Position numbers and translations under genes: made by a program
IMG/VR virus record: IMGVR_UViG_3300044712_001933
Span: 5,606-69,605 of that record
Length of the DNA: 64,000 bases
Reading direction: 5' to 3' (one strand)
From: a virus
Shown here: one piece after another, positions 409 to 29,988 of the stretch
How the letters are laid out: the number at the start of each line of letters is the position of its first letter
Numbering within the stretch: the stretch's first letter is position 1
The notes under the pieces: generated by a model
The model's database searches: none
Seen by the model: the letters and a program-made list of their open reading frames with translations, nothing else
What the model was told of the DNA's origin: nothing

Positions 409-753
409 CTAGCCGGTCCGGAACATCTCTGCCAGGCGCTCGATATCCCCCATGGTCAGCCCAGACGCTGCCAGGAATTGCTCCGGCGTCATCTGGTCTT
501 TTAGGGACGCCGTGGGCTTAGGCGTCTGGGCACGAGTGCCCGCCTGGGCCTGGACCTTGTTAGGATCCGGCGTGGCCCGGATGACATTAATGCCGTCGCT
601 GATGAACCCGGCCTCAACCTTATGGAACAGGTCGGAGGGCAGCGGCCCTGCGGGCGAGCTCTCCGGCGACCGTTGGGTCGGTGACGTATTGGTGCCCTTT
701 GGCGTATTCTTCTTGCCCGAAGACCCGGGTGTCGAAATAGGTTGTTTTGGCAT
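409..753 (-). CDS. Hypothetical protein overlapping the 3' end of the polyvalent protein gene
   Basis: 114-aa ORF filling the gap to ruvC; low-complexity N-terminus in the 134-nt overlap, helical C-terminus. Confidence 0.5.
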   Translation of the reverse strand: MPKQPISTPGSSGKKNTPKGTNTSPTQRSPESSPAGPLPSDLFHKVEAGFISDGINVIRATPDPNKVQAQAGTRAQTPKPTASLKDQMTPEQFLAASGLTMGDIERLAEMFRTG

Positions 754-3700
754 AGCTTATCTTATTCTTGTCGTCTGCGTCTAATAGTACTCTAGCTTTG
801 TCCACGTTGTCAAGCCATGCTTTTGCGTTCTCGGCATACTTGGCAGGATCCAAATGGACCGAATCGTAGCGCCCGGAGATTTCCGGGATATACTGCATGC
901 GGATGCCGAGAATCCGTCCATTTGTGTCTTTAGCAATGGTGAACCCGTCAATGCCGGCCCGCATAAACGCTTTAATGATCGGGGCTGTCTGGGCCCGGTT
1001 CAACGTCGATTTAAAGCCTACCTCCATCCCCGGCCGAGCGTTGGGGTGGTTCTGGTCGACCACGTAGGACGCGAACACGTCTTCCTGCTTCGCCCGCTGC
1101 CCAAGGTCAAAAATCTGCTTCTCGAAGTGCGGGAGAGCATCTGACCCGTGGAACGTGGCTTCAACGTCGAACGTCGGCTCGCGCTCGAACATGAACATGC
1201 CGTCTGAGGCATTCACACGAGACGCCATGAGGCCGGGCATCTTGCCAATGGCTCGGCGGAGGTCCTGGCGCTCCTTTTCAAACACGCCGATGTCTATCCC
1301 GCGCTGTTCTTTTCGCGCCCCGGGGTACTCCGGCGGCAGGAATTCTTTGCGCGCGGTGGTCACGCCCGCCTGGGCCCTGACGGAGCCGCTCAGATCCACG
1401 GCCCGGAAGTCGCCCTTCTTCTTGCCGGCGGCCTCGGTCCAGTCCTTTTTGTCCCAGAGATCCTTCTCGGCAAACCACAGGATCGCCTGCATGTCGTCAG
1501 GCTCCAGGCCGGCCTTCTCGGCAGCATATCGGAAGCCCTTTTGGGCCAGGACGAAGTCCCCACCGTACTCACCCTCTTTATTGCGGCCGTAGGACACCCC
1601 GTTTTCCTGCTGGGGCGTGATCCTCCACTGCGGCGTATCCTTGGAATAGAGCAGTCGGCGGACCATGCGGGCGGCCCAGACGTCGATCGTGGCCTCAAAG
1701 GTGCGTCCGGTCAGGTTGCCGGCAAAGTTGGGCGTCTTGGGCCCCTTGGTGCGCTCGAGCCAGTCCCCGTACAAGACGTCCAGGACTTTGGCGCTGTTCA
1801 TGCCGAAGAGCTGTCCGTCTTCCTTGGTCGGGAGCTGCCCCCAACTCGCGGGATCTCCGCCGGCTTCCCGGTGCTTGTCGTAGGAGTCCAACAAAGTGTC
1901 GAAATCTCCCCGGGAGTACATCCGCATCGCTTCCAGGGCGTAGTTCAGGTTGCTTTCGACGTCCGTGTTGGCAGACGTGGCGCCTAGCAGCTGTCCAAAC
2001 ATCTCCAGGGTGGCTCCAAAGGCTTTTTGGAACCGTTCCCGGACGTCCGCATACCAGCCCTTGCCGGCCACGATTGCCGGGATATCTTTGACCTTTAGGT
2101 ACTCCTTATACAGAAGCTTCCCTAAATGCTTCCCGCCCTTGTCTAATACTTCGGCGCTCTCCTGAGCTTTCAGGGCCTCCCGTTTGGCAATAAGCTTGTC
2201 CAGCTGTTCCTGAATCCTCGGCTTCTGGCTGACGTCGGCCTTTTTAAGGATCCTGCGCTGCGCTTCTACCTGTTTCTGGGCCGCCAAGTGCTTCGGGGCA
2301 TACTTCGCTTCAACATCCTCGGCAATTTTGACGATTGCCGGAGCGTTCATCATGCCGTAGGGGATCTTCTTATACATGAGCTTGCCCTTGTTGTCGGCTC
2401 GGATAGATCCGTCCTCAGCCAGCGCGAGCTCCAGGGGAATGGATTCTGGCCAATTTTTCTGCTCCTCTAAATTCCCAAGATGCCGGGCACGCAGCTCTTC
2501 CTGAGTGGGCGGCACGTTAGGGCTGAACCGCATGGAATACGCCCCATTGGCGTCGTAGACCATCCGGTCGTTGTAAACGAGCCGCAGCCCCTGAGCCGTT
2601 GCGGCATCCTCGAGGGCCGCGCGCTGCCCCCGGGGCAGGCTCTCAAAAGTGCTCCCGCGTCGGCCGGTAACATAGAGGGCCCCATCCTCTTTCTGAGCAC
2701 GCAGGAAATTACGGCCGGCCAGCTCGTCGTAGACGCCGGCGAGGCGATCCATGCTCTGGACCTTCAACGGCTCGCCATACACTTTTTGGTGCCAATCGGA
2801 GGCAGCAACTTCATGCCCTCCAGAGGCGTCCATCAAGGAGCCGTCGGGGCGGACCCAGAATTTGCCGGGCGTAGCGTTGGACGCTTCAGGCAGCACTTCA
2901 GAAATGAGGGACTTCGCCTCCTCGGGGGTGCTGGCGGATCCGATCTTGTAGAGCTTCCCGCCGGCAATCTTCTGCTGCAGCTCGTAGAGGCCGCCCCGCG
3001 GCACCACTTCGAACCTGTCGCCGCCGACTTCCGCGCGCCACCGGTCCGTGCCGACTTCCTGCCAGTCCAGATTCGGAGAGTAACGAGCGTCCGAGACCTC
3101 TGGGTTGAACCGCTCGGACAACGGGATGACGTTGCCCTGGTCGTCCTTCGTTACGGGGTCAAGAAGTTTGCCCGTGCCGTCGGTTTCGCCCTCTTTCAGG
3201 CCAAGCTTTGCCAGGTCAAGCCCACCCCCATCCCACGGCATCGTCTTTTGCCCCGCATCGGTCAGTATCTTGTTGACCTCGGCCTCGGACAAAATCTTGT
3301 TGACCTTCATGGATCCAGAAATGATCCACTCCCCGGTCATGTTGGGGTTCGTCTTGTACCGATACATGCCGTCGGCGGGCATCTGTTTGATGTCCGCCTT
3401 GACCGCACTGAATTTTCCGGTCTTCGGGTTGACCCCGTTCTGACGGGCCTGGGGCTGGTAGTCCTTGTCGGCCGCTACCTCGACTTCTCCCCAAACTTCG
3501 TTGGCGCGCCGGGCGTAGACGTTCCCATCCGGCCCCTTGACACCAATGTGTGTGGCCAGCGGCGTATCACCCGCGTGCCATCCCGGCCGGAAGGCTAAGT
3601 CGCCTAGCTTCGACTTCACCCCGCCGGTCTTACTCTCGGGACCCGGCAGTGCGTCGAGCCATACTCCCGTGGGAATCGCCTGGTTCGCCCCCACAAATAA

Positions 3701-6700
3701 GGGGAAGAGCTCCCCGGGCCGTTTGGGGTTCGTCGAAAAGAGCTTATACGCCTTGACCGTCTTCTGAGGGGGCGCCGTGCGCCGCACTCGGAACGCTGTC
3801 GAGCCGCTATCATCAACGATCGGCAGCCCAGACTCCTCGGCGGCCTTGTTGACCATCTGCTGGGCCTTCTCCATGTCGCCGGAATTCACGGCGTCCAGGT
3901 ATTCGGAATCGATGTCTGGGCTGAAGCGCGCGCCTTTCGGAGCTACGGCTTTCGTCCCGCCCTCGCCTTGGCCTAGCGGTGTCAGGGCGATCTTGGGAAA
4001 CGTCATCGCCACGGTCCGCTTGTCGTTCGTGTCAACAACGAGGCCGGCGTAGCCCGCGTCCCGCAGCATATCGTCGGCAGCTTCCCGATTGATCATGCTG
4101 AAATACCCCAGCGGGTCGGATTTGCCGGCGCGCAAGTCGTAAAAGCGGCTGCCGTCAACGACGGCGCCATACGCGTACTTGTTATTGAACAACGCCTCGT
4201 CCTGGCCAAAATCGGACCCTTCCAGGAACAGGTAGGACTTGTTCCCACCGCGCAGATCCCGCGGGTTCGCGGAGCCCTTGCCAAAATACTTAGGATCCAG
4301 CGTTTTGAGGTTCTGCCTCCCGCTGTAGTGAATCAGCCGGAGCGGAATGGGACCAACAGAGTAGGGCAGGGTCCCCTTACCTTTCAGCTGGATGTCGTCA
4401 GCCACAGCCGGGCTGGCCTGGATGGGTGAAGGATGAGCGGCCGGGTTGGAGCGCGCTTTTAAAGCGCTGTCCAAAACCTCGTCCGCCGTGGAATCGGGCG
4501 TGAGATTGAGCACCTTTTTCTGGTACTCGCCTCTAGCGAGCGGAGCGTCGCCAGGCTTCACCGTCTCCATGCGATCAAGCCTGAACGACCTGATAATGCC
4601 GACCCGGTCCTTGCCGGTAAGCGCTTCCCGGAGCGGGTTGGCCTTCATGTTGGCCACGTTACGGCCGATCACGACGGTGTTGATGAAATCGCGCTTTGCC
4701 TGACCGATACCGTCTTCGCCCGGGCGTCCCTCCGAGTGGTTTTTCAGGTAGGTCACGAAATCCTTGCGGAATTCTCCCTTGTCCCCGTTCCAAAGAGGAT
4801 CGAGCTTCCCGCCGGCCTGCAGCTCGGTTGCCCGTTTCTCAAACGTAGTCAGGTCGAGCATGACAAAAAGCACGTTCCCGCCCTTAGCTGCAGCCTTTCC
4901 CCCATCCAGGGACACGGTGCCTTTTTTAGTCACCACGATGGCTATCGGGATGCCCTCCCGCTCGGTGAAGGAGAGGTTGCCTAACGTCTTGCCGAGGTTC
5001 CGAGCCCATCCGCCAGGCATGCCGCCGGACGTCGAGATAGCGTGATAGATGAATTTGACGGGGGTGCCGCTGGCGATGGCTTCCTCCAACAATTTCGCGT
5101 ACCCCTTGTGGTCCTCACTATACTTTTGTAGGGCGGCAAACCACGCCGGCATCTTTGTGCCGGTGACAGCCACGCCTCCGCCGACCTGGGCCCGCGGCGC
5201 CACTTCGGGATTCGGATCCCCGATAGGCTTGACGGGCTGCTCGCCCATCGCCGCCTCTACTTCCTTGGCGCGCGCTTCCTCAGTTTTACGGACCTCCTTG
5301 GGAGTAAGCTCGCGGACCTTACCGTCAGCCGTTTGGACGACGAAGTCATTGCCGACGGTCCCATCAGCCTGTTTGTGCAGCGGTAGCGGGCCACCCTCTT
5401 TGCCCACCATCTCTTTAGTGACTGGGACAGCTTTCTCCTTAACCTCAGTGATGCCCGGCAAGCGGTTGTTAAGCTCTCGAATGTACCCATAAGTGAGTTT
5501 GCGCAGGGCAGGGGAGTCCAACACGTCGTCCAAATTCGTAAAGAGGGACTTATACCCGGGCCGGGTCTCGGTTCGAACACCGATGGCAGAAAGGATCTTA
5601 CGGCCAGCGCTGAGCGCCAGGTCGGTCAACCCCGGGGAGCGAATCACGTCGTTGTAAATGTGCTTGCCCTTTAAAGACCCAATCCCGGCGTCGGCGAAGA
5701 TTTCACCGTAGATCCAGGCATTAGAGTCACCGTAATCGACGGTCGACCGGTGCTGTTGCGACGCAAGCTCCGCGTCGATTGTGGCTTGATACTCAGGAGA
5801 AGCTTTCCATGCCTCGTACTGCTGGTACTTGCGTTCCTGGACGGCTCGCTCCGCGTCAGTTCGAGCGGAGGCGACCTGTTCAGGAGTGGCATCAGGCGTT
5901 AGCGGGGCGCTCTTCAGCTGAGCGTCTACCTCGGCGGCGTATTCCGGAGACTTCCTCCATTTTTTGAGCTCGGCATCTTTTCGGCCGACCACCAGGCGCT
6001 CCGAGTATTCGCGGGCAGCGGCCTGGAGGCGCGCAGGGTCACCAATGGCCGAGTCGATCACGGACCGGATGTGCGGGCTATTCGCCGCCTCAGACGCCAT
6101 AATGGCGTGGCTGACTTCGTGGTAAAACGTGTCGGCAAGATTCCGGCCGCCCTCCATGTTAACCAAAACGACGGGCTTATCCCCATCCCGGAAAAATCCA
6201 GCGGTGCCGTCGCCTCCGCCCTTCGCGGCATACTCGGCGCCGTTTACGAATCGGATGTCTAAACTCCTTCCAAAAGCCTTTTGGAGGCGCGCGGCCGCAA
6301 CCATGACGTCGTCGGTAATGGTGCGAGCCATCAGTTCCGGATCCGCCCCGTTGGCGAGCTGTCGCGCCACCATTTCGGTGACGTTTTGGGCGTCCGACTC
6401 CCAGACCTTGGCTTTCTTCTGCCAGGGGTGGGTGGCCAGGCGCATGCCGTAGCCGAGGGTCCCGCCCGAGCCGATGGATGCCCCGAGCTCTTCAGGATTC
6501 TCGGCGGTAAGGGCCCCGATTCCGGCACCGAACGCGGCACCGTGGGCGGTCGACTTAGCGACATCCTTGGCAAACCGGGCACCTTTTTCGACGCCGAGGC
6601 TGTCCAGAAAGGTCGCGGACACTTTCAGCCAGTCGGCAGCGTCCGGATTGGCTGCGACCTGTTTTAGCCGGGAGAACTGAGGATCAAAAGTGGTGGACAT

Positions 6701-7801
6701 GAGGTGCCGGCCGGCGTCAGCAGCACTCTGCAGACCCTGTCCAGCGACTTTCAGCCCTTTGGCCCCGGCGATCGTTGTACCGAGAGGGCCGAGGGCGCCC
6801 ACGACGCCGGCCCCGGCGCCCACGTTCGTGAGCGTTTGCGCAGCCTTCTCAGCATACGCAGGCCCCACCATTTTCTCGGCGGTCTTTTCAATGAGCTTCT
6901 CGGGGAGCTCCCCGACAAATTGAGCGGCCGCGCCGAGCTTATCAGTCGCAGCGACAGCCGTATTGGCGACCCGTTCCGCGGCTTTCCCAGGAAGCTGAGC
7001 AGCTTTTGCCGCCAGTGCCGTGAGCGTCGGGGCAGCCTCGGCGATCTTTGCGGGAAGCTGGGCAGCTTTGACGGCGGCCGCGGTCAGTGTAGGCGCAGCC
7101 TTGGCGATGGCACCCTGTACCCCATGAGTGGCCGCATGCTTGATGGCGGACTTGACAGCCGAGGACACCCCGAGAGACCCCACAAAACTGGGATCGAGGA
7201 CGTTCGAGGAAAACTCAGAAACCTGGTTGTAGGGGAGAGCCGGCAGCAGCCAGTCCGGTGTTAGATTTCCTTTACCGTCGAGCCCTTGTTCTCGTTGCTG
7301 TTGGGCGGCCTTATTCGCAATCAGCCGCTGGTAATAAGCTTGGAAATGCTCCTCGGGGGACAACTTGGTAAAATGGTCCCACGCCTTGTTAGACGCCATC
7401 CGGACCATGTTCCCCATGTCATAGAATCCGCGCGACAATCCCTCTATGGCAGAAGCCCCAAGACGGGGTGCCGTATTCCGGCCCAGGTCTGACCAAACCT
7501 CATAGGCACCCTCGCCCAAAGATTTGCCGACGCTGTTCACTCCTCCAGCAATTCCTTTCCCGAGATCGGACCAAAACCCCCCAGAGAAGAACCCCTTCGA
7601 TTGATCGTCCTCGTAAAGCTTTCGCGCCTGGGCTTCGTTAGGGATAAAAGTACTCCCCTCGGCGCCCGTCATCTGCTTGAGCTCGTCCACGGTCGGCTCC
7701 TGAGAACGGCCAGTAAACACCACCCCGTTCTCCCCTTTAGACTGTTGTGCAGAAGCTGGCTCGGCGTCCATTGTCCTGCCCGTATAGATTATGTCGTCCA
7801 T
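620..7801 (-). CDS. Large polyvalent internal virion/ejection protein (HExxH peptidase, ART-like, glycosylase-like, SAM-lyase-like domains)
   Basis: 2393 aa at the end of the ejection-gene block. Motifs FYHEVSH, IRSFRLDR, LIHYSG, YLDAVNSGD, RPGWH, DPVTKDDQGNVIPLSERF, GPKTPNF/TIDVW/QAILW. AAGGGG RBS. Confidence 0.8.
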   Translation of the reverse strand: MDDIIYTGRTMDAEPASAQQSKGENGVVFTGRSQEPTVDELKQMTGAEGSTFIPNEAQARKLYEDDQSKGFFSGGFWSDLGKGIAGGVNSVGKSLGEGAYEVWSDLGRNTAPRLGASAIEGLSRGFYDMGNMVRMASNKAWDHFTKLSPEEHFQAYYQRLIANKAAQQQREQGLDGKGNLTPDWLLPALPYNQVSEFSSNVLDPSFVGSLGVSSAVKSAIKHAATHGVQGAIAKAAPTLTAAAVKAAQLPAKIAEAAPTLTALAAKAAQLPGKAAERVANTAVAATDKLGAAAQFVGELPEKLIEKTAEKMVGPAYAEKAAQTLTNVGAGAGVVGALGPLGTTIAGAKGLKVAGQGLQSAADAGRHLMSTTFDPQFSRLKQVAANPDAADWLKVSATFLDSLGVEKGARFAKDVAKSTAHGAAFGAGIGALTAENPEELGASIGSGGTLGYGMRLATHPWQKKAKVWESDAQNVTEMVARQLANGADPELMARTITDDVMVAAARLQKAFGRSLDIRFVNGAEYAAKGGGDGTAGFFRDGDKPVVLVNMEGGRNLADTFYHEVSHAIMASEAANSPHIRSVIDSAIGDPARLQAAAREYSERLVVGRKDAELKKWRKSPEYAAEVDAQLKSAPLTPDATPEQVASARTDAERAVQERKYQQYEAWKASPEYQATIDAELASQQHRSTVDYGDSNAWIYGEIFADAGIGSLKGKHIYNDVIRSPGLTDLALSAGRKILSAIGVRTETRPGYKSLFTNLDDVLDSPALRKLTYGYIRELNNRLPGITEVKEKAVPVTKEMVGKEGGPLPLHKQADGTVGNDFVVQTADGKVRELTPKEVRKTEEARAKEVEAAMGEQPVKPIGDPNPEVAPRAQVGGGVAVTGTKMPAWFAALQKYSEDHKGYAKLLEEAIASGTPVKFIYHAISTSGGMPGGWARNLGKTLGNLSFTEREGIPIAIVVTKKGTVSLDGGKAAAKGGNVLFVMLDLTTFEKRATELQAGGKLDPLWNGDKGEFRKDFVTYLKNHSEGRPGEDGIGQAKRDFINTVVIGRNVANMKANPLREALTGKDRVGIIRSFRLDRMETVKPGDAPLARGEYQKKVLNLTPDSTADEVLDSALKARSNPAAHPSPIQASPAVADDIQLKGKGTLPYSVGPIPLRLIHYSGRQNLKTLDPKYFGKGSANPRDLRGGNKSYLFLEGSDFGQDEALFNNKYAYGAVVDGSRFYDLRAGKSDPLGYFSMINREAADDMLRDAGYAGLVVDTNDKRTVAMTFPKIALTPLGQGEGGTKAVAPKGARFSPDIDSEYLDAVNSGDMEKAQQMVNKAAEESGLPIVDDSGSTAFRVRRTAPPQKTVKAYKLFSTNPKRPGELFPLFVGANQAIPTGVWLDALPGPESKTGGVKSKLGDLAFRPGWHAGDTPLATHIGVKGPDGNVYARRANEVWGEVEVAADKDYQPQARQNGVNPKTGKFSAVKADIKQMPADGMYRYKTNPNMTGEWIISGSMKVNKILSEAEVNKILTDAGQKTMPWDGGGLDLAKLGLKEGETDGTGKLLDPVTKDDQGNVIPLSERFNPEVSDARYSPNLDWQEVGTDRWRAEVGGDRFEVVPRGGLYELQQKIAGGKLYKIGSASTPEEAKSLISEVLPEASNATPGKFWVRPDGSLMDASGGHEVAASDWHQKVYGEPLKVQSMDRLAGVYDELAGRNFLRAQKEDGALYVTGRRGSTFESLPRGQRAALEDAATAQGLRLVYNDRMVYDANGAYSMRFSPNVPPTQEELRARHLGNLEEQKNWPESIPLELALAEDGSIRADNKGKLMYKKIPYGMMNAPAIVKIAEDVEAKYAPKHLAAQKQVEAQRRILKKADVSQKPRIQEQLDKLIAKREALKAQESAEVLDKGGKHLGKLLYKEYLKVKDIPAIVAGKGWYADVRERFQKAFGATLEMFGQLLGATSANTDVESNLNYALEAMRMYSRGDFDTLLDSYDKHREAGGDPASWGQLPTKEDGQLFGMNSAKVLDVLYGDWLERTKGPKTPNFAGNLTGRTFEATIDVWAARMVRRLLYSKDTPQWRITPQQENGVSYGRNKEGEYGGDFVLAQKGFRYAAEKAGLEPDDMQAILWFAEKDLWDKKDWTEAAGKKKGDFRAVDLSGSVRAQAGVTTARKEFLPPEYPGARKEQRGIDIGVFEKERQDLRRAIGKMPGLMASRVNASDGMFMFEREPTFDVEATFHGSDALPHFEKQIFDLGQRAKQEDVFASYVVDQNHPNARPGMEVGFKSTLNRAQTAPIIKAFMRAGIDGFTIAKDTNGRILGIRMQYIPEISGRYDSVHLDPAKYAENAKAWLDNVDKARVLLDADDKNKISYAKTTYFDTRVFGQEEYAKGHQYVTDPTVAGELARRAAALRPVP

Positions 7802-10132: not shown

Positions 10133-10495
10133 CTATTGGCCGTGGAACACCTTGCCGAACAGGGTCGTGTCGATAATTGGCGAGTAGCCCTGGCGCTCCA
10201 TCAACGGGTAGAACGGCGAGGTGTTGGCACACGGCAAAATGACACTGCCATACCCCTTAGTTTTAACGATCTGCTCACCCCGCTTCCAGAGCATGAGACT
10301 GTCGCGAGGACTTATCCGCCGGCTGTCGAGCCAGACGTGCAGGATCGGCGTATTACAAATGGAGGCGTAGCCGGCGACAGTCCCGTCTTTTTCAACTACA
10401 TGGGTGGGAAAAAGGACGGTATGGTTGTCGGCCTGGGCGGCCTTCCACAAAACGTCCATGTCTGCCGGCAAGTATGGGCGCAATGTCGCTCTCAT
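10133..10495 (-). CDS. GNAT-fold virion-assembly protein
   Basis: Start MRATLRP makes an ATGA overlap with the upstream stop; VVEKDGTVAGY...LMERQGY pattern; position typical. Confidence 0.6.
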   Translation of the reverse strand: MRATLRPYLPADMDVLWKAAQADNHTVLFPTHVVEKDGTVAGYASICNTPILHVWLDSRRISPRDSLMLWKRGEQIVKTKGYGSVILPCANTSPFYPLMERQGYSPIIDTTLFGKVFHGQ

Positions 10496-11619
10496 CGCGC
10501 AAGCCATAGATCGGTTTCGACGGGGCGTTCCTGGTACCACCCACGGTCCCAAATATCATAGAGGCTGTCGAAGTAGAGCTGATAGAGTTTGCCGGCGCGC
10601 TCCATCGAGAAATTATGATCCGCGTAGCCGCGTATGACGTAAGGATCCAGGTCCGGAGCCCGTTTAGCAGCCTCGAGGAATTCCGCGAAGGTCCGGCATC
10701 GAAAGCCATTCACGCCTTGCATGACGGTCTCGCTAAACACTCCCCAGTCAGTAGTGATGACGGGAGTGTGGCAGAAATTCGCCTCCGCGTGGACACCTTC
10801 AAAGGGCCCGATATACCACGTTGGCGTGAACAGCGCGAGGGCGCCGCCCATCAATTCGTTGCGCTGTTTCGGGTCTACCGTGCCAATGTGCTCGACGTTC
10901 TTGTACGTCGACAGATCCATGCCGTCGACGTTGCTGAGATCGCCCTGGCCGGCCACGATGAGCTTTTTACCGAGCTTCGCCGTTACCTCGCAGGCGACCG
11001 ACAGCCCCTTGCGGGAAATGAGCCGGCCGACGAACAGATAGTAGTCGCCCTTCTTGGCGGGAGCTACGGGAAACTCTTCCGGGGCATAGGAATTGGGGAT
11101 GACCGTGTCGTACCATGCCCCGTCCTCGACTCCCATACGGCCGTACAGGTAGTGCATCCACGCATAGGACTCAAAGACTTTGTGCTTGGCAAACACCCCA
11201 GAGTAACCGATCCCGGACTCGACGGTGAACCGCAGATTCGTGCCCTGGGAGACCGGCAAGTGGTAGTTGCCCATGGTCACGAGGAGGAAATCCCGTTCGT
11301 CTTTTATGGCGTTGATTTCCGCCACTGCCCGGGCGTTGAAATTCTCATGGACTTTGTCCTTCGGCTCATGCTTAAAGAACTCCTTGCGCCAATTATACTC
11401 GCCATAAGCCGCGACCCGCTCCTCTTTAGTGCCGACCGTGAAAAGTCGGTCGCACGGGACGTCACTTCCCTCAGTGCCGTAAAAAAATACAGTATGGCCC
11501 CGGTCTTTGAGCATGCGCGCAAGCCGGATAATTTTTTGAGAATACGCGCAACTGCAAAATTCAGGTGCAGTAGGTACGTGGGCAAGGCCCAAGAGATGAA
11601 AGCGGTATTTTTGACCCAT
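10492..11619 (-). CDS. Glycosyltransferase family 4 (GT-B)
   Basis: LKDRGHTV, VIPN, YLFVGRLISRKG, LIVAG, PTWYIGPFEGVHAEA...TPVITTDWG. Confidence 0.9.
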   Translation of the reverse strand: MGQKYRFHLLGLAHVPTAPEFCSCAYSQKIIRLARMLKDRGHTVFFYGTEGSDVPCDRLFTVGTKEERVAAYGEYNWRKEFFKHEPKDKVHENFNARAVAEINAIKDERDFLLVTMGNYHLPVSQGTNLRFTVESGIGYSGVFAKHKVFESYAWMHYLYGRMGVEDGAWYDTVIPNSYAPEEFPVAPAKKGDYYLFVGRLISRKGLSVACEVTAKLGKKLIVAGQGDLSNVDGMDLSTYKNVEHIGTVDPKQRNELMGGALALFTPTWYIGPFEGVHAEANFCHTPVITTDWGVFSETVMQGVNGFRCRTFAEFLEAAKRAPDLDPYVIRGYADHNFSMERAGKLYQLYFDSLYDIWDRGWYQERPVETDLWLAR

Positions 11620-11707: not shown

Positions 11708-14700
11708 CTACTCACAGATCGGTATATACCGCTGCGCTCCGCCAATGATGATCCCCAAGAATCCAACCACTTTGCGGCTATCCACGTAGGCGTAGCCGCT
11801 GGCAGTTACACTACCCGCCGCGCCCACCTGAACGACACACTCATTTCCGCCAAAATTGTTCCTAAAGCTAAGGCTACCACTGGAGCTGCTAAGAGTGACG
11901 TTGCCCGGGAACGTGTAGTTGCCCGATCCAAACGTCCCCTGCGTGATGGTGCTCGCAGACTGGGTATGACTGCTGGAGCTGCCCCCATCCACACTAATAG
12001 ACCACCAAGTGTTTTGGTTATCACAGATTCTAAGCTGTTGCAGGGCCTGATCCCACAACAACTTGCCCTCCTCGGTGTTGCCGTACTCACCATCGTCCTC
12101 CCGAACGGGAGCAATGAAATCAGCTCCCCTGCAAGCAATGCGACCAGAGAACAAGACGTCGCCACTGCCAATGGTAACGGATGCGTCAGTATACCCTGGT
12201 TTTGCTGTTAATAAAGAGATCTGGCGAGCAGAAATCTGTAGCCCACTATTGTCGTCTGTGATCAGGTCGAGATCGATTAATCCTTCTGCGTTTTGTCCCC
12301 CCGGCCGACTGAAATCGTAATGCAGATGCGTGTCTTGGAGTTCACCATCCGATGGACAGTACGGGATATACGGGCGGTGTACCATAAGCCCATCAGTGCT
12401 CCCCGGGGGGCCAGGAACCCCGCTCGGGCCCGTGGCACCCGTTGAACCCGCTGCGCCGGCACTTCCAGGAGTGCCCTGCGCGCCGGCAGGCCCGGCCTCT
12501 CCAGGCTTCCCGACCCCGTAAGAAAAAGGAATGTTGGTGTCAGCAGGATGACAAACCTGAAATTGCCAGCAGTCCACATAGGCAGTGCCGGTGGATCCCG
12601 GATCCCAATACATCAGAAGCCTGATCGATTTGGTAGTCTGGGTGATAGCGAGAGCCGCGCCGGTTCCGACGCCCCCGACGGTGGTCGCGTAACGAGTCCA
12701 CCCACCGTTGCTTGCGGAGATCATCGCAACCGTTGAGTAGGCGATAATGGACGACCCGTTGACATCAGAGTAGGTCGCGAGGACCAGGGAAAAAGTTCCA
12801 GAGACGACCATGACCTTGGCCATGGCGGCCAAAAGGTAGGGGATGGCAGGATTGACGAGAATTGGAACGCTTCTGCCTAGCACCTCGCTCGTGGAAGCCA
12901 CTAACTTGCCAGAATATGACCCCTCGTATTTATCGTCGGAGGACCGCACAACAGCGCCATCCCACCCATTAGAAATATTGGTGTCCTCAAAAGATGGATT
13001 TATGACGAGATTAGCACCAACGCCACGAGGTCCGGAGGGGCCTTGTGCGCCTGCACTTCCGGGGATGCCTTGAAGCCCGCTCGGCCCGGTTGCCCCACTT
13101 GGGCCTTGTGCTCCGGGACTGCCAGGAGTGCCAGGACTTCCAGGGACCCCGCTCGGCCCGGTTGCCCCACTTGGGCCTTGGGCGCCCGGGCTGCCTGGAC
13201 TGCCTGGGCTGCCGGGAACCCCCGAAACCCCTGTTGCCCCGGTTGGTCCTTGTGCGCCAGGACTGCCGGGAGTGCCAGGGGTCCCGGGAACTCCTGAAAC
13301 CCCTGTTGGCCCAGTTGGTCCTTGTGCCCCGGGACTGCCGGGAGTGCCAGGACTTCCAGGAACCCCCGAAACCCCCGTTGGGCCTGTTGGTCCTTGTGCC
13401 CCGGGACTGCCGGGGGTGCCAGGACTTCCAGGAACCCCCGAAACCCCAGTTGGCCCAGTTGGTCCTTGTGCCCCAGGACTTCCAGGACTGCCGGGGGTGC
13501 CCGGAACCCCCGAAACCCCAGTTGGCCCAGTTGGTCCTTGTGCCCCAGGACTTCCAGGACTGCCGGGGGTCCCAGGAACCCCTGAAACCCCTGTTGGCCC
13601 GGTCGCCCCAGTATTTCCAAGTGGTCCTGTACTTCCGACCGGGCCTGTACTTCCGACCGGGCCTGTACTTCCGACCGGTCCTGTACTTCCGACCGGCCCA
13701 GTTGGTCCGGTACTGCCGACTCCGCTAGGGCCGGTTCCACCAACTACCCCGCTCGCCCCGGTAAAACCGCGCGGCCCGGTTGCCCCGGTCTCGCCCTTGC
13801 CCGGCGGCCCGGTCCAACCTTGCGGCCCAGTTGCCCCAGTATTTCCAAGTTCGCCTCGAGGCCCGGTCGCCCCGGTCTCACCGCGCGGGCCGGACTCGCC
13901 AACCCCTTGGGGCCCGGTCCAACCTTGGGGCCCGGTCGCCCCAGTATTTCCAAGTTCGCCTCGAGGCCCGGTTGGCCCGGGATCACCCTGCGGGCCGGTT
14001 TCACCGACCCCCCGAGGCCCGGTTGGCCCGGTATTTCCAAGTCCACCGACGGGCCCGGTCGCGCCTGTATTTCCAAGCTCCCCTTGAGGCCCGACCGGTC
14101 CTGTACTTCCGACCGGTCCTGTACTTCCGACCGGTCCTGTATTTCCGACCGGTCCCGTCCCGCCAACAGGGCCAGTACTCCCAGTGGCGCCTTGGGTCGC
14201 CGCAGGCCCAGGGGGACCTTCCGGCCCGGTTGCCCCAGTACTTCCAGCGGGTCCAGGGGGCCCGGATTCGCCTTGTGGGCCAGTTTCGCCCTTGCCCGGC
14301 GGCCCAGTCCAACCTTGACTTCCTGTGGGTCCAGTGCTACCGACAGGGCCGGGCGGCCCCGGGCTTCCAACATCTCCGGGAACCCCGCTCGGCCCGGTTG
14401 GGCCAGGAACCCCAGGGACTCCGCTCGGCCCGGTCCCACCACCAACCCCAGGAACCCCGCTCGGGCCAGTACTCCCCGTATTTCCAGGCGGGCCAGGAAC
14501 CCCGCTCGGGCCAGCCGGGCCCGTACTTCCAACACTCCCAGGCACGCCGCTCGGACCAGTGCTGCCCGTATTTCCAGGCGGGCCGGGGTCACCAACGGCG
14601 CCAGTAAATCCGCGAGGCCCCTGATCCCCACTTGGGCCGGTAAAACCGCGAGGCCCGCTCGCACCGGTATTTCCAGGGAGACCAGGGTCCCCGCTAGGGC

Positions 14701-14845
14701 CGGCCGGGCCAGTACTTCCGACACTCCCAGGAACCCCGCTCGGGCCAGTACTACCCGTGGCGCCCTGCGTCGCCGCCGGCCCAGGAGCGCCTTGAGGCCC
14801 GGTTGCGCCCGACGCTCCAACATTGTATAGAGAAACTAATGGCAT
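11708..14845 (-). CDS. Collagen-like tail fibre with CBM4/9-like carbohydrate-binding domain
   Basis: About 200 Gly-X-Y triplets, then an NLVINPSFE-initiated beta-sandwich, a short second collagen run and a C-terminal domain. Confidence 0.85.
13044..13607 (-). repeat. 72-bp tandem repeat, about 7-8 copies ([24 protein letters not shown])
   Basis: GGTCCTTGTGCC recurs at 72-nt spacing (13317, 13389, 13461, 13533); 18-bp GSTGPV repeats lie near 13622-13700 and 14094-14155. Confidence 0.9.
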
Positions 14846-22641: not shown

Positions 22642-23961
22642 CTAAGTCGCGCTGATGGCGCCGAGGCCCTTGGCATAGCCGAAGGCGTTGGCAAACTTGA
22701 GCTTGAGGCCCAGCTTAGCCCGGAACTGTTCCTCGTACTTATCAGTACCAGGCAGTTGGATGTTGGGCTCGAGGAACAGAGGCTCCATCGATTTTTGGAC
22801 GACCATGGCCAGGTCGACCACGAACATCCAGGTGACGAAGCTGGGAATTTCCTGCAGCAACGGATGGAACGCCAGATCAAGAACACCGAAAGGCGTGTTG
22901 ATCGTGGTGATGTTCATGCCCCAGACCGTCTCCTGGTTCATAATCCGGAACCCATTCGTGGCGCTATTCGCGAAAGTGGAAATCGCGGCATACGCCGAAG
23001 GGCCGGCCAGCGCCAACTTAGCATCCGATCCGTAAACCATGAAGCTTCGCAGCCACTCGTTGAACGCAGCGAGCGTCACTGTGCCGGTGCCGAGAAGCGC
23101 ATTGGCGGACAGGCCAGCGGCCTCGATGGCGCCCTTGATGCCGCCCGTGTAATATTCGTAACCGTTAGACCCAGCCTTGCGGACTTTAGTCCCCAACAGA
23201 TAGGCCAATTCGATATCCTTGGCGATGGACTCGAGCGCCTGCAGCCGACGCTGACGGAGCGGGCCGGCCTGGTCGGTGCGCAGTTTTTGGCCTTTGAAAG
23301 CGTTGGTCAGGTTCACCGCGCTGTTGAAAGTCTGGATGTAGTTGGTCAACAGGTCGGGCTCCTCAAACTTTGCGCGGACGGGACCGGTGCCTTCGTCCTT
23401 ACCCAACGTGACAATCACCAAAGGATCGCCGGCCAACAGAACATAGGTGCTCGCACCAGTGCCCGGGGTCGCACCCGTACCAATCTGCGCGTCCGTATAA
23501 TTCATCCGGCGATACGTCTTAACCGTATCAGTCGTGGGCGTATCTCGAACCTGGATGTATTCACCCGTGGTCATGTTGTACAACACGGTACCTTTGTCGA
23601 GGTACTTCCAAGCCTCAGTGCCGGTGCCATCCGCAGTAGTGGACATCACGATCACGTCGCTGGTATCACCGCGATCGATAGTACTCGACGCACCATCACT
23701 GGTGACATACGCAGGGTTGGCGGTCTTTACATACAGCGTTCGGCGGAGCGGATCCCTTTCGAACCAGCTAAATTCAGTATTCTCGGCATTCTCGGTCTTG
23801 AGGCGACTCATCAAACCGAAAAGGGTGGTGCCGACGTTCATCCCTTTCGCATTTCGGATCAAAATCGTCCGTTGATACTCGCCCACCAAATCAGCATTAC
23901 GGCTAAGATCAACCTGATTACCCGAATTAGTAGCCAACAGCCCTGCAACAGCACTTCCCAT
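22642..23961 (-). CDS. Major capsid protein (SU10/DUF5309-like, HK97 fold)
   Basis: FSWFE, NYIQTF, KDIELAYLLG, TGGI, INTPFGVL, LGLKLK; follows the scaffold; AAGGGG RBS. Confidence 0.9.
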   Translation of the reverse strand: MGSAVAGLLATNSGNQVDLSRNADLVGEYQRTILIRNAKGMNVGTTLFGLMSRLKTENAENTEFSWFERDPLRRTLYVKTANPAYVTSDGASSTIDRGDTSDVIVMSTTADGTGTEAWKYLDKGTVLYNMTTGEYIQVRDTPTTDTVKTYRRMNYTDAQIGTGATPGTGASTYVLLAGDPLVIVTLGKDEGTGPVRAKFEEPDLLTNYIQTFNSAVNLTNAFKGQKLRTDQAGPLRQRRLQALESIAKDIELAYLLGTKVRKAGSNGYEYYTGGIKGAIEAAGLSANALLGTGTVTLAAFNEWLRSFMVYGSDAKLALAGPSAYAAISTFANSATNGFRIMNQETVWGMNITTINTPFGVLDLAFHPLLQEIPSFVTWMFVVDLAMVVQKSMEPLFLEPNIQLPGTDKYEEQFRAKLGLKLKFANAFGYAKGLGAISAT

Positions 23962-25576: not shown

Positions 25577-27664
25577 TTAGAGCCCTAATCCGCCTGGCCG
25601 AGGCTGGCTCGGACCGAGCGCGGGCAGTTTTATCTGAGGCAACGCAGGAGCGGCCGGGTTTTCCGGCGCAGGCCCAGGCGGCTGACCAGGTCCAGCAGGC
25701 GAAGGCATGCCGGGAGGTCCAGCAGGCGCCACCGGAGGCCCTGCGGCCCCTCCAGGCTGATAAGGAGCCGGCAAGCTCGCAGCAGGATACTGGAAATTGT
25801 CCAAATCGATGCCGGAGGCTTTGGCGGCGCCAAAAACGAGCTTCCGAGGATCCAAATTCCCAGGCGCCGGCGCAAAGATCTGCGGGAAGGCCCCGACGGT
25901 CTCGAGAATTCGAGTGATCGCCGCGACTTTTTTTCCGTCCGTACCAGGCAGGGTTCCGTCGTGCGCGACAAAATCAAAACTCCCCTGAATCGTGTCCCGG
26001 GAAATAGCCAACGAAGCAACTCCCTGCAGCGCGGCCGGCGTGTCCAGATTAGGCTGGAAGCGCAGGATCTGCGGAACGTCTAAAAATTGCTGAAAGTTAC
26101 TGACGAATTGCTGAGTCTGGCCGACGAGGGCCTGGGTGCTCAGCAACCTGGCAACCGAGCTCATGCGCCCGGCAGACATTTGCTGGGTGCCGGCGAATTG
26201 CGTCGCAGAATCCGCGTCAGAGCTCATCGATCCCTGCATCGAGCTGTTCGCCCCGGTCACGCTTTCGCTAAACATCAGGAATTGCATCATCTCTTCCTGG
26301 AAGTTTTCAGTGAGGTCTTTGATCGGGACCTGTTGGATCGCTTCGCTGATCTTCATCCCGGTCGCGTTGGGCTTTAGGACGATCAGCATGCCCTCTTTTT
26401 CGGGATCCAGGAAGTCCTCGATCTCGACATACTCCGGGTTCGCGATGAACACGTTGCCGACGGTGCGCGCGATGGCTTCTTGGTGCCGATTTTTTAAATA
26501 ATCGACATGGTCCTGAAGCCCCTTCAGAAGGGTGATCCAGGAAGGCGAAAATTGGTAGTGCGCAAACGGCCGGCCCTCGGCGACAGAATAGGGGAAAACC
26601 CCGTGGGCGTAGGTGGATTCGTTGACAGCCAGCAAAACGTCCTCGCCGGCGATTAAAAATTGGAAAACAGACGACTCCTCACCGTCGTGGATCTCGTGAT
26701 CCACCGGCACCAGCTTGACCCACAGCTCCCAAACGTCGAAAATCCCAGGGTCTTTTTGGTTGCCCGTCTCAGGAAGCCCCAGGTCGCTGGTGGATCGGGT
26801 ACGCTCGTACTCCGTACGGCTGACCTCGCTCGTGGAAGACGTCGGCGAACCGCTGCCCGAGACCATGGCTTCGATCGAGGGCGTCTTGGCGGCGGCCTTT
26901 TTCTCCTTCAGCTCGGCTACTGCGCTTGGTAAAACATACGACGGATGGTCGATGGGCAGTTTAGACCGGCGCTCGAGGTCGTGGTAAGCGATCCGAGTCT
27001 TATGCCCGCAGAAACGCATGTCGTTCAGGCGCCACAAGGGCAGGGCAGGGTCAGCCACCCAGTCATAGGGGCTTACCAGCTCGGCACGATTGTACCCGCC
27101 GATCACTTTGGTCTTGCGGACCGGCCGAAAATACGTGGAAGGGACGCCCGTCTCGGGGTCGACCTCCTCCGGATCCATCACCGACTCCTGGACTACTTCA
27201 CTCCCGTACAGGGGCGCCCAAGAGTTGTAAAAAATGCCACGGTTGGCGACAAGGCAGTCCTGCACCCAGAGATACCCCAACGTGTAAAACGGCTGGCGCT
27301 CCGCGTTCCATTTGAGCAGTCGATTGACGTGCTCCGCCGGAATTTCATCCTCTGGGCCACGGGGCTCCACTTTGTGCGGGGTGTCCTGGCCAAACAGCAC
27401 CTGGGCGATGTAGGTCGCCATGGTGGTTATCTGGGTTGCCGACATCGGCAGCACATACCTGCGCGGGTGCCCTTTCGCGAGCTTGACGTAGTCGTCCCGC
27501 GTCAGGGGCGCGTAGCACATAAGCGCATCATAAGCAACATCAAAGTCGCCGGTCCAATATTCGACCGCACCACGACCAAGCCGCAGGTAGTCCTTAGCGA
27601 CTTTGGTGATGTCCTCGCGGAATTTTTTCTCCCGCTCGATGCGCCGGGCCAGAAGCCTGTCCAT
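25577..27664 (-). CDS. Portal protein
   Basis: 695 aa; VEPRGPED, VSPYDWVADP, VWELW, FPYS, SVTG...SAT; Pro-rich tail. Confidence 0.9.
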   Translation of the reverse strand: MDRLLARRIEREKKFREDITKVAKDYLRLGRGAVEYWTGDFDVAYDALMCYAPLTRDDYVKLAKGHPRRYVLPMSATQITTMATYIAQVLFGQDTPHKVEPRGPEDEIPAEHVNRLLKWNAERQPFYTLGYLWVQDCLVANRGIFYNSWAPLYGSEVVQESVMDPEEVDPETGVPSTYFRPVRKTKVIGGYNRAELVSPYDWVADPALPLWRLNDMRFCGHKTRIAYHDLERRSKLPIDHPSYVLPSAVAELKEKKAAAKTPSIEAMVSGSGSPTSSTSEVSRTEYERTRSTSDLGLPETGNQKDPGIFDVWELWVKLVPVDHEIHDGEESSVFQFLIAGEDVLLAVNESTYAHGVFPYSVAEGRPFAHYQFSPSWITLLKGLQDHVDYLKNRHQEAIARTVGNVFIANPEYVEIEDFLDPEKEGMLIVLKPNATGMKISEAIQQVPIKDLTENFQEEMMQFLMFSESVTGANSSMQGSMSSDADSATQFAGTQQMSAGRMSSVARLLSTQALVGQTQQFVSNFQQFLDVPQILRFQPNLDTPAALQGVASLAISRDTIQGSFDFVAHDGTLPGTDGKKVAAITRILETVGAFPQIFAPAPGNLDPRKLVFGAAKASGIDLDNFQYPAASLPAPYQPGGAAGPPVAPAGPPGMPSPAGPGQPPGPAPENPAAPALPQIKLPALGPSQPRPGGLGL

Positions 27665-28416: not shown

Positions 28417-29988
28417 TCAACGATACCGACGCGGACGGTTGACTTTCACGGTCCTGGCCAGCGGACCCACGAGCCCCTTGGAGCCTTCCACTTTGGTCTT
28501 GGTGATCCTCAGGCAGTTTATTTTGGCGTACCTGGCGGCGTCGCTGACGTGGTCGACCTCACCACAGAGAGGGCCCTTGAGGGGCTCATCAGATCCGTAG
28601 CCAGGCTGTCCAGGTTCCGGGTAACGGTAGGCGCCGCAGAGAGCGGCATACAGGGTCGGACAAGCACTCTTGTCGATCCGATAGACCAAATTGCCGAAGC
28701 GGTCCTTCTCTTCGAACAACCGGTTCACGATCGTGAAGCTGTCCTGGAGCCCTGAGCGGCAATAGCCTGGGAAGATTTGGTAAGAGTGGAGCGTGTCGAT
28801 GCTGCGCCCCTTGTCCGTCCGGGCACTTCCAGCAATGTCGCAAAAGTCTTTTACGCCCCGGCAGATATTCCGATCGTTCCAGAAAGGGAAAACGGAATTG
28901 GTGATGTCGACCGCGCGCCGGCATTGGCGTTCCACGTCGGACTGAGAAGCCACGGATTCGTAGAGGTCCCACCAATATTCGTCGATGCCGTCCTCCCAAT
29001 ACGCCGCCCAGACGATGGCGTTGTGCGTGCCGAAGTCCCACCCGCGGATCAAATAGGCCCCCTCGGGCCAGTCCAGGTGGTCAAAAGAGTGTTCCTGGGA
29101 GAAGGAGAAAAAGACCGGGTTCCCCTCGAACACGTCGCTGTATTGGCCCAGTAACATTTTCTGGAACAGGGCCGGATTTTTCGCATACGCTCGCTCGAGG
29201 GTTTCGACGTAGCCGGTGGGGAGATTGTGACGATTCTCGTGGGTGGGAATATGCCAGTAGTGAGTGTCCGACCAGCCCTCTTTTTTCCACTCGTCTTCCA
29301 ACTTGGCGATCCAGTGCGACGGGCTCGGCGGGTTCGAGTCGATGATGATTCCAGAGTCGACGATGTAGCCCTTTTCGTCGCAGGTGAACGGGTCGGCGCC
29401 CTTCCACCGGAGGCACGCCAGGGCCATGTCATAGTCGGATTTCATCAGCTGGTCGGCCTCGACGAAGATCAGGCGAGAACATTCGAAACCACGAAACCGT
29501 GAAGCCTGGTAGTTTTCGCTGGGCACGCCGGCGAAACACAGCCAGGAGCAGTACTGATTCCCGACGGAGTCCAGCCATTGGATCGTCTGCGATTTGGAGG
29601 CGCCCGGATTCTTATGCTTGAAGTCGTTAAACAGCTCGATGGCTTTGCGGCTCGGTAGTCTGAAGGTCCGGCCGCCGTCCATCTTTTTAAACAGAGAGAC
29701 TCCGGTATCCTGATACCCGGTGCCGCATCGGGCAAAGACCAGCTCGAACGTCTCGAGCGTGGTGTCCTCGTTGGAGTCCTGGGTCTTGCGGAGAATGTAG
29801 GACTTCGCGCCGGCATTGTGGAAGCTGTGGTCGATCACGTCCACGGCGATCGCAGTTGTTTTTCCGGATCCACGCCCGCCGATCAAGAAGCGTTTCCTCG
29901 CCGGCGACTTGTGGAACTCTTCGATGGACCGGCCGGGCTTATACCACCCGACCTCCGTCGTGTCATTTCTTGGGATTATTGTGGACAT
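28417..29988 (-). CDS. terL: Terminase large subunit
   Basis: Walker A GGRGSGKT, DSNP coupling motif, RNase H GWDFG, C-terminal DH..DAARY. Confidence 0.95.
   Translation of the reverse strand: MSTIIPRNDTTEVGWYKPGRSIEEFHKSPARKRFLIGGRGSGKTTAIAVDVIDHSFHNAGAKSYILRKTQDSNEDTTLETFELVFARCGTGYQDTGVSLFKKMDGGRTFRLPSRKAIELFNDFKHKNPGASKSQTIQWLDSVGNQYCSWLCFAGVPSENYQASRFRGFECSRLIFVEADQLMKSDYDMALACLRWKGADPFTCDEKGYIVDSGIIIDSNPPSPSHWIAKLEDEWKKEGWSDTHYWHIPTHENRHNLPTGYVETLERAYAKNPALFQKMLLGQYSDVFEGNPVFFSFSQEHSFDHLDWPEGAYLIRGWDFGTHNAIVWAAYWEDGIDEYWWDLYESVASQSDVERQCRRAVDITNSVFPFWNDRNICRGVKDFCDIAGSARTDKGRSIDTLHSYQIFPGYCRSGLQDSFTIVNRLFEEKDRFGNLVYRIDKSACPTLYAALCGAYRYPEPGQPGYGSDEPLKGPLCGEVDHVSDAARYAKINCLRITKTKVEGSKGLVGPLARTVKVNRPRRYR

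Follow-up and report, generated by a model that had tools for sequence, protein, structure and literature searches.

Does the C terminus of a giant virus-encoded protein carry an S-adenosylmethionine (SAM) lyase or a domain of another kind? The question arises in the window, a 64,000-nucleotide stretch comprising bases 5606-69605 of the 69,605-bp single-contig virus record IMGVR_UViG_3300044712_001933 (IMG/VR). Its minus strand holds an open reading frame (ORF) of 2393 amino acids (aa) at 620-7801 (P0001), in which an initial annotation had placed a SAM-lyase-like domain at 1060-1382. The flagged interval is a real conserved domain, nearly identical to the one called D1 here (1058-1384), and it does lie near the C terminus. 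D1 and the following D2 together constitute a conserved, so far undescribed two-lobed domain of giant phage proteins. This module is like SAM lyases in its fold class and in the Gly-x-aromatic/acidic/Gln arrangement of D1, but it is not demonstrably of the SAM-lyase family. The reading that we rank first, with the chances that it is correct about evenly balanced, is that the module, together with the preceding DUF7178 domain, forms, between its two ferredoxin-like lobes, a cleft for catalysis or ligand binding.

The architecture of the module was examined using the last 274 aa of the ORF as the query (window 623-1444, minus strand; in q numbering, q1 is aa 2120). AlphaFold2, supplied with an alignment of 23 sequences (the query and 22 short homologues picked by length from the 150 listed), predicted two tandem beta-alpha-beta-beta-alpha-beta ferredoxin-like halves, D1 and then D2 (pLDDT 86.8, pTM 0.84). 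A model of D1 alone gave the same order of strands and helices (pLDDT 82.6). In the full-module model, the D1 strands are at q21-29, q72-84, q87-99, and q122-129 and its helices at q52-67 and q104-117. Comparison of D1 with D2 by hhalign detected no internal duplication (P = 0.058, 18 columns). The features of the module are as follows.

1403-1441, minus strand: DUF7178-D1 junction, W-T...G...[SD]-F, aa 2121-2133 (from the alignment)
1058-1384, minus strand: D1, aa 2140-2248, q21-129, with elements b1 a1 b2 b3 a2 b4 (from the models)
1193-1201, minus strand: G2201-M-F2203, at the end of beta2 (from conservation)
1160-1180, minus strand: acidic strip E2208-P-T-F-D2212-V-E2214, on beta3 (from conservation)
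1085-1087, minus strand: Q2239, in the alpha2-beta4 loop (from conservation)
704-1039, minus strand: D2, aa 2255-2366, q136-243 (from the model)
1022-1042, minus strand: D2 motif NARPGxE
926-955, minus strand: D2 motif GIDGFTxxxD
881-907, minus strand: D2 motif GxRxQYxPE
728-730, minus strand: D2 motif DT (T2358)
635-670, minus strand: C-terminal helix GELARR..., kept in closer homologues

Conservation was counted in a slice alignment of 150 sequences. In D1, the residues R23 (96%), G27 (98%), R76 (88%), Q120 (99%), and S126 (92%; all in q numbering) are conserved. G2201 (q82) is present in 139/141 sequences (99%), and position 2203 (q84) is aromatic in 141/142 (Tyr in 113, Phe in 27, and Trp in 1). 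On beta3, E2208 (q89) is found in 142/144 (99%), D2212 (q93) in 134/144 (93%), and E2214 (q95) in 140/144 (97%); Q2239 is kept in 146/147. The strongest motifs of the module sit in D2, not in D1. In q numbering, D2 has N135 (96%), R137 (97%), P138 (99%), E141 (95%), G167 (99%), T169 (97%), D173 (88%), G180 (98%), R182 (96%), Q184 (97%), P187 (99%), E188 (100%), and T239 (93%). About 23 residues of the module are near invariant, among them R2142, R2195, R2256, R2301, E2208, D2212, E2214, E2260, D2292, and E2307, as well as Q2239, Q2303, N2254, S2245, T2288, T2358, and the G-x-Tyr/Phe motif. Near-invariant polar and conserved hydrophobic residues alternate along the predicted strands, a pattern that would put the polar residues on the helix-free faces of both sheets, and a cleft between D1 and D2 is therefore proposed.

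A search of 1.84 billion representatives (clusters at 50% identity) with the module matched at least 243 clusters at E ≤ 1e-3, 116 at E ≤ 1e-10, and 42 at E ≤ 1e-30. Neither Pfam nor PHROGs contains a family that covers D1-D2; isolated chance-level matches were all that was returned, the best being phrog_4181 (E = 0.03) on D2. That match was dropped: T3-like SAM lyases do not match phrog_4181, and 1 of 23 members of the module family does. Scans of IMG/VR contigs and of prokaryotic genomes (one genome per species, 185,579 species), both restricted by the peptide patterns used and thus not censuses, found 17 relatives in the former and 1 relative among 23 pattern matches in the latter. Among the IMG/VR relatives, five contigs of 38.8-41.9 kb are rated 100% complete, three of them with terminal repeats. 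The sole prokaryote-genome relative (L024, 2001-2312) comes from a 34-kb contig in an archaeal metagenome-assembled genome and has 31% identity over q113-188; the contig may be a viral one binned with that genome.

The proteins that carry the module are mostly large. Of the 149 non-self matches listed, 110 are at least 1000 aa and 60 at least 2000 aa long, and no stand-alone module was found: a search restricted to 150-480 aa gave 2 proteins, both of them fragments on contigs of 1.3-1.6 kb. In complete related phage genomes of 38-42 kb, the giant protein occupies about 6 kb, or about 15% of some 40 kb. Such confinement to giant proteins suits a second-ranked and rather unlikely reading, in which the module, instead of being an enzyme, has a part in structure, assembly, or ejection. 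It could, for example, be a plug on the DNA end or the portal, or bind nucleic acid or a small ligand in an RRM/ACT-like manner, and would be required for packaging or releasing the giant protein. The module is indeed often found at the extreme C terminus, within 60 aa of the end in 54 of the 149 matches listed. However, 63 of the 110 listed matches of at least 1000 aa extend for more than 300 aa beyond the module, and a role tied to a free C terminus is disfavored because the module is mid-protein in these homologues. The absence of a match to any known enzyme family and the presence of ACT pairs, which are ferredoxin-like tandems, among the Foldseek matches described below also speak for a nonenzymatic element. 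On the other side, several strands contribute near-invariant charged and polar residues, in numbers and of kinds that typify an active site rather than a scaffold.

The module is consistently accompanied by DUF7178 (PF23802), which was the sole match in a Pfam scan of P0001 (1469-2074, minus strand, aa 1910-2111; 43.5 bits versus a curated cutoff of 27; E = 4.4e-11). DUF7178 lies directly upstream of the module in all seven large homologues scanned, above the curated cutoff in five and below it in P0038 (E = 2.3e-4) and P0060 (E = 1e-5), and it is present in the precomputed Pfam lists of 17 of 20 non-self homologues. There is no variable linker between DUF7178 and D1; the junction is conserved at its W (115/128), T (111/129), G (108/130), and F (111/134), and for this reason DUF7178, D1, and D2 look like one unit. 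ART-PolyVal occurs in 3 of the 7 homologues scanned and in 4 of the 20 with precomputed Pfam lists, LPD38 in P0063, P0064, and P0215, and an SLT (lytic transglycosylase) domain in P0215, the weakest match. DUF7178-D1-D2 is a recurrent cassette of giant phage proteins, which are labeled here as being of the polyvalent type because some homologues also carry ART-PolyVal, LPD38, or SLT.

Next, the proposed relationship to SAM lyases was examined at the sequence level. The five peptides on which the initial annotation was based are all in frame in the minus-strand ORF (620-7801) and fall within aa 2145-2243 (window 1073-1369).

1349-1369, minus strand: AGVTTAR, aa 2145-2151
1220-1261, minus strand: LRRAIGKMPGLMAS, aa 2181-2194
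minus strand: GMF, aa 2201-2203
minus strand: REPTFDV, aa 2207-2213
1073-1114, minus strand: IFDLGQRAKQEDVF, aa 2230-2243

The T3 motifs with which they had been compared (VSAFR, LRAAPGLYGS, GCY, EEKT, and LA....QDCVL) were all found in T3 gp0.3, in the order given (NC_003298, 901-1359). Profile searches did not extend this resemblance to a family relationship. For T3 gp0.3 itself, the S-AdoMet_lyase family PF23780 gave E = 5.7e-42 and phrog_2226, the PHROG of T3 SAMase, gave 6.4e-54, whereas the module query had no match to either at E ≤ 10. The same was true of the 23 family members, none of which matched PF23780 at E ≤ 10 or phrog_2226, and PF23780 found nothing at E ≤ 10 in a six-frame translation of the whole phage genome. 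BLASTP of the module against T3 SAM lyase gave E = 12, and profiles of the module family found no SAM lyase among the PDB sequences. Alignment by hhalign of the 150-sequence family with 46 T3-like sequences gave P = 0.26 for the whole module; D1 against T3-like sequences gave P = 0.058 (a local alignment of 22 columns covering alpha1 only), 0.094, and 0.45, and D2 gave P = 0.11. The T3-like profile itself is narrow (Neff 2.8). The homologue search with T3 gp0.3 returned 45 proteins, all T3-like at 41-92% identity, so that the profile contains no Svi3-3-type sequences, and a scan of viral contigs with the T3-like alignment returned 22 loci, again all T3-like (39-45% identity). Because the profile is this narrow, a very remote kinship between the module and SAM lyases would be compatible with these results.

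The nonsignificant hhalign alignments, forced or obtained at a low threshold, pair G2201 with T3 G55, F2203 with Y57, D2212 with E68, and Q2239 with Q94; in T3-like proteins, these four positions (G55, Y/F57, E68, and Q94) show little or no variation. A strict pattern shared by T3 and D1, G.[YFW].{10}E.{24,26}Q[DE], did not occur in a background of 228,911 residues (the 149 homologues after masking of the module), and a loose version occurred 80 times (0.35 per 1000 aa); this test overstates significance because the pattern was written after both sequences had been viewed. In active SAMases, only Gly56, Glu69, and Gln104 are strictly conserved, and Tyr58 of Svi3-3 packs on the ligand in a site at the trimer interface beside the beta5-beta6 hairpin, according to Guo et al. 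(PMC7877911). Residues of the same types (Gly-x-aromatic, acidic, and Gln) are invariant in D1 and occur in the same order as Svi3-3 G56, Y58, E69, and Q104, with T3-like spacing. In the D1 model they are placed with G2201 and the aromatic residue 2203 at the end of beta2, the acidic residues 2208, 2212, and 2214 on beta3, and Q2239 in the alpha2-beta4 loop. However, the modeled beta2-beta3 turn of D1 comes directly after F2203, versus a hairpin tip in Svi3-3 (64-65) about 6 residues beyond Tyr58. Because the D1 hairpin differs in length from that of Svi3-3, the register of the D1 acidic residue is uncertain. Moreover, the residues for which conservation or ligand contact is described in the consulted passages on SAM lyases (PMC7877911) do not include the four invariant Arg residues, most of the acidic residues, or most of D2.

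Structure comparison led to an ambiguous result. The predicted fold of D1, a ferredoxin-like beta-alpha-beta-beta-alpha-beta sandwich, is of the same class as that of SAM lyases (PMC7877911), Svi3-3 included. The Foldseek comparison suggested in the initial annotation did place Svi3-3 and T3 SAM lyase among the structural neighbors of the module, but unrelated ferredoxin-like folds (MoaC, PII, ABM, and HPPK) score equally well or better. For the full module against the PDB, the best E values (2e-5 to 1e-3, with template modeling [TM] scores of 0.2-0.34) belonged to duplicated ABM-type, chlorite-dismutase-like, and ACT-pair proteins; T3 SAM lyase (8bb1_E) was at rank 19 (E = 5.5e-3, Foldseek probability 0.99, target TM score 0.51, 183 columns), Svi3-3 (6znb) was at rank 30, and 7ock_K was at rank 36. 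D1 alone had 1400 matches at E ≤ 10, of which only two reached E ≤ 1e-3, both of them MoaC (1eks and 4pyd, 9e-4, 18-21% identity). PII (2gw8; 1.7e-3, TM scores 0.50/0.58) was at rank 3 and Svi3-3 (6zm9; E = 1.8e-3, TM scores 0.43/0.40) at rank 4, and some 45-50 other ABM, PII, CutA, and HPPK chains fell within 1e-3 to 8e-3, several with higher TM scores. Since the ferredoxin-like fold is very common, the fold shared by D1 is weak evidence for a SAM lyase. In BFVD, ranks 1-17 were pieces of giant uncultured-phage proteins, followed by many proteins of 104-147 aa, three of which are named SAM hydrolase (ranks 32, 39, and 47). A structure search of the ESM Atlas gave no usable match. CYTH triphosphate-tunnel, primase-polymerase (DxE), and class III cyclase (DGFT-like) folds, which were considered on account of the Arg/acidic pattern and which we take to be analogies, did not appear in the best 50 ranks of either PDB Foldseek search.

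Taken together, the fold class and the D1 residue pattern of the original SAM-lyase proposal stood, and the family assignment did not, no sequence or profile test having been significant. The third-ranked reading nevertheless takes D1, either by itself or with D2 in the place that the neighboring subunit has in a PII-like trimer, to be a SAM or SAM-AMP lyase that has diverged very far. Carried in the virion, it would cleave SAM or the SAM-AMP signal on entry, before phage gene expression, and so blunt type I restriction-modification, BREX, or CorA-type CRISPR defenses. Besides the shared fold and residue pairing, this lyase would be consistent with the Foldseek and BFVD listings given above, with the absence of the strict, post hoc pattern from the background, and with a recorded fusion of a phage SAM-AMP lyase to a further domain (PMC12255297). 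Set against it are the lack of a significant match from PF23780, phrog_2226, hhalign, BLASTP, or the PDB sequence profiles, the equal or better scores of other ferredoxin-like folds, the differing hairpin length, and the additional invariant residues. We consider it improbable that the module has true SAM-lyase activity. Its broader form, in which DUF7178-D1-D2 would be delivered by the virion and would belong to the PII-like SAM-lyase superfamily as a branch that has diverged to an extreme degree, with a fused second lobe in place of the trimer neighbor, appears to us to be just as much of a long shot, and we rate a divergent SAM or SAM-AMP lyase in D1 as similarly doubtful.

A cleft between two ferredoxin-like lobes, combined with DUF7178, is the reading that we prefer. 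In the mechanism that it implies, the giant protein would be delivered into the host with the DNA, and the module would act early in infection as an enzyme on a small polar host molecule, with a substrate that probably carries a nucleotide, adenosyl, or phosphate group. Several points weigh against it: (i) strand parity is the sole basis for predicting a single cleft at which the conserved faces of the two halves come together; (ii) the catalytic activity, the substrate, and any metal site are putative; (iii) Foldseek TM scores to all solved tandem-ferredoxin proteins are low (0.2-0.5, with root mean square deviations [rmsd] of 7-17 Å), and because of these low scores the placement of the two halves is without solved precedent; (iv) other ferredoxin-like tandems do no more than sense ligands (ACT, PII) or bind RNA; (v) Pfam and PHROGs recognize no polyvalent-protein enzyme domain in P0001 itself; and (vi) the giant protein is presumed, from indirect evidence, to be packaged in the virion.

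To place the module among known systems, it was compared with four groups of proteins. SAM lyases (T3 gp0.3 and Svi3-3; PF23780; PII/GlnB-like superfamily) share with it the ferredoxin-like sandwich and a phage origin, a conserved Gly-x-aromatic motif on the strand that leads into a long hairpin, an acidic residue on the strand that follows, and a Gln ahead of the last core strand, and they are mutual Foldseek matches with E values of 2e-3 to 3e-2; they differ in having no significant sequence or profile similarity to it. SAM lyases are described as free proteins of about 125-150 aa that form trimers with intersubunit sites and are made first after infection (PMC7877911 and PMC8406200). The module, in contrast, is a double domain fused into a 2393-aa late protein; its second half is the more conserved one, and it has many additional invariant Arg and acidic residues. 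Tandem ferredoxin-like proteins (ABM monooxygenase-like 3mcs and 3f44, chlorite-dismutase-like 3dtz, and ACT pairs) likewise consist of two consecutive beta-alpha-beta-beta-alpha-beta halves and give the best Foldseek E values for the whole module (2e-5 to 6e-4). With TM scores of 0.2-0.34 and rmsd of 15-17 Å, however, they do not reproduce the arrangement of the halves, and they show 7-15% identity and no common motifs. MoaC and PII, single ferredoxin-like domains that bind nucleotide at oligomer interfaces, are the top D1 matches, but their E values are marginal and indistinguishable from those of dozens of ferredoxin-like folds, with no match at the sequence level.

Polyvalent proteins (Iyer et al. 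2017, PMC5512222) are the fourth group. As in that group, the giant protein is encoded among the virion genes of a portal-terminase phage, and homologues of the module also carry ART-PolyVal, LPD38, and SLT; it differs in that D1-D2 matches no Pfam polyvalent-protein domain and P0001 itself has DUF7178 only. The main text of PMC5512222 contains no occurrence of "SAMase," "S-adenosylmethionine," or "ferredoxin." Within the available portions of the literature searched, no packaged SAM lyase was found, nor any link between SAM lyases and polyvalent proteins outside one reference list; the literature search found nothing on DUF7178.

Outside the cassette, the giant protein has few recognizable features. 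A PHROGs scan of P0001 gave two matches, phrog_30118 and, over the DUF7178 region, phrog_3842, the function of both being unassigned, and phmmer of whole P0001 against the PDB sequences gave no match at E ≤ 1. A tblastn search of INPHARED with P0001 had one match only, Roseobacter phage CRP-212 (aa 1305-1522, 37% identity), so that the phrog_30118 region is the only part of the giant protein common to a deposited phage. The HEVSH motif, an HExxH of the zincin type, is matched by neither Pfam nor PHROGs and could mark a candidate divergent polyvalent-protein metallopeptidase. The Ala-rich repeats, together with a Gly/Ala-rich hydrophobic stretch that follows them at aa 327-347, could be the part of an ejection protein that is membrane active or coiled. 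In its database copy (P0002, 2383 aa), the giant protein starts at Met11 of the ORF, the second Met (start region 7771-7801, minus strand); the protein may start at the first Met or at Met11, both being compatible with the data.

3233-3763, minus strand: phrog_30118, aa 1347-1523 (E = 5.7e-57)
6107-6121, minus strand: HEVSH motif, aa 561-565
6971-7096, minus strand: two tandem 21-residue Ala-rich repeats (APTLTA...AAQLP...), aa 236-277

By PHROGs calls on the window genes, the giant gene closes the late (virion) operon as its last large gene. This gene position, together with the homologues, suggests that the giant protein would be a packaged and ejected virion protein, as the initial annotation had supposed. 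Its neighbors are as follows, with assignments from PHROGs where given.

28417-29988, same strand, upstream of the giant gene: large terminase (PHROGs)
25577-27664, same strand, upstream: portal (PHROGs)
22642-23961, same strand, upstream: major head protein (PHROGs)
same strand, upstream: several virion structural proteins (PHROGs)
11708-14845, minus strand: collagen-like tail fiber, 1045 aa (PHROGs)
10492-11619, minus strand: glycosyltransferase (phrog_3408, E = 8.6e-89)
same strand, upstream: two ORFs without assignment
409-753, minus strand: Pro/Ser/Thr-rich ORF, 114 aa
1-378, downstream of the giant gene: RuvC-like resolvase

The tail fiber matched 26 PHROG families via repeated stretches, and the glycosyltransferase gene is placed within the virion-gene block, between the tail fiber and the giant gene. 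The 114-aa ORF would overlap the 3' end of the giant gene by 134 nucleotides if its first ATG were used; it probably begins at a later Met, because the conserved C-terminal helix of the giant protein extends to 635. No T7-like RNA polymerase (PF00940) was found in the genome of the window or in 5 related complete phage genomes, a search in which the control genomes likewise gave no signal.

What would the module mean for these phages? If it were a SAM or SAM-AMP lyase, it would, to judge by the searches, be the first prepackaged cofactor- or signal-destroying enzyme of that family; the family would extend far past the current reach of sequence searches, and many uncultured phages would inject a ready-made lyase that disarms SAM-dependent defenses before transcription. 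If it is not, the case cautions that a ferredoxin-like fold plus three or four common residues is insufficient to assign SAM-lyase function. Giant polyvalent proteins are regarded as the earliest of the phage weapons to enter the host cytoplasm, and most of their domains are without known function. The chemistry of the D1-D2 module, once defined, would add a new activity to the arsenal of early infection.

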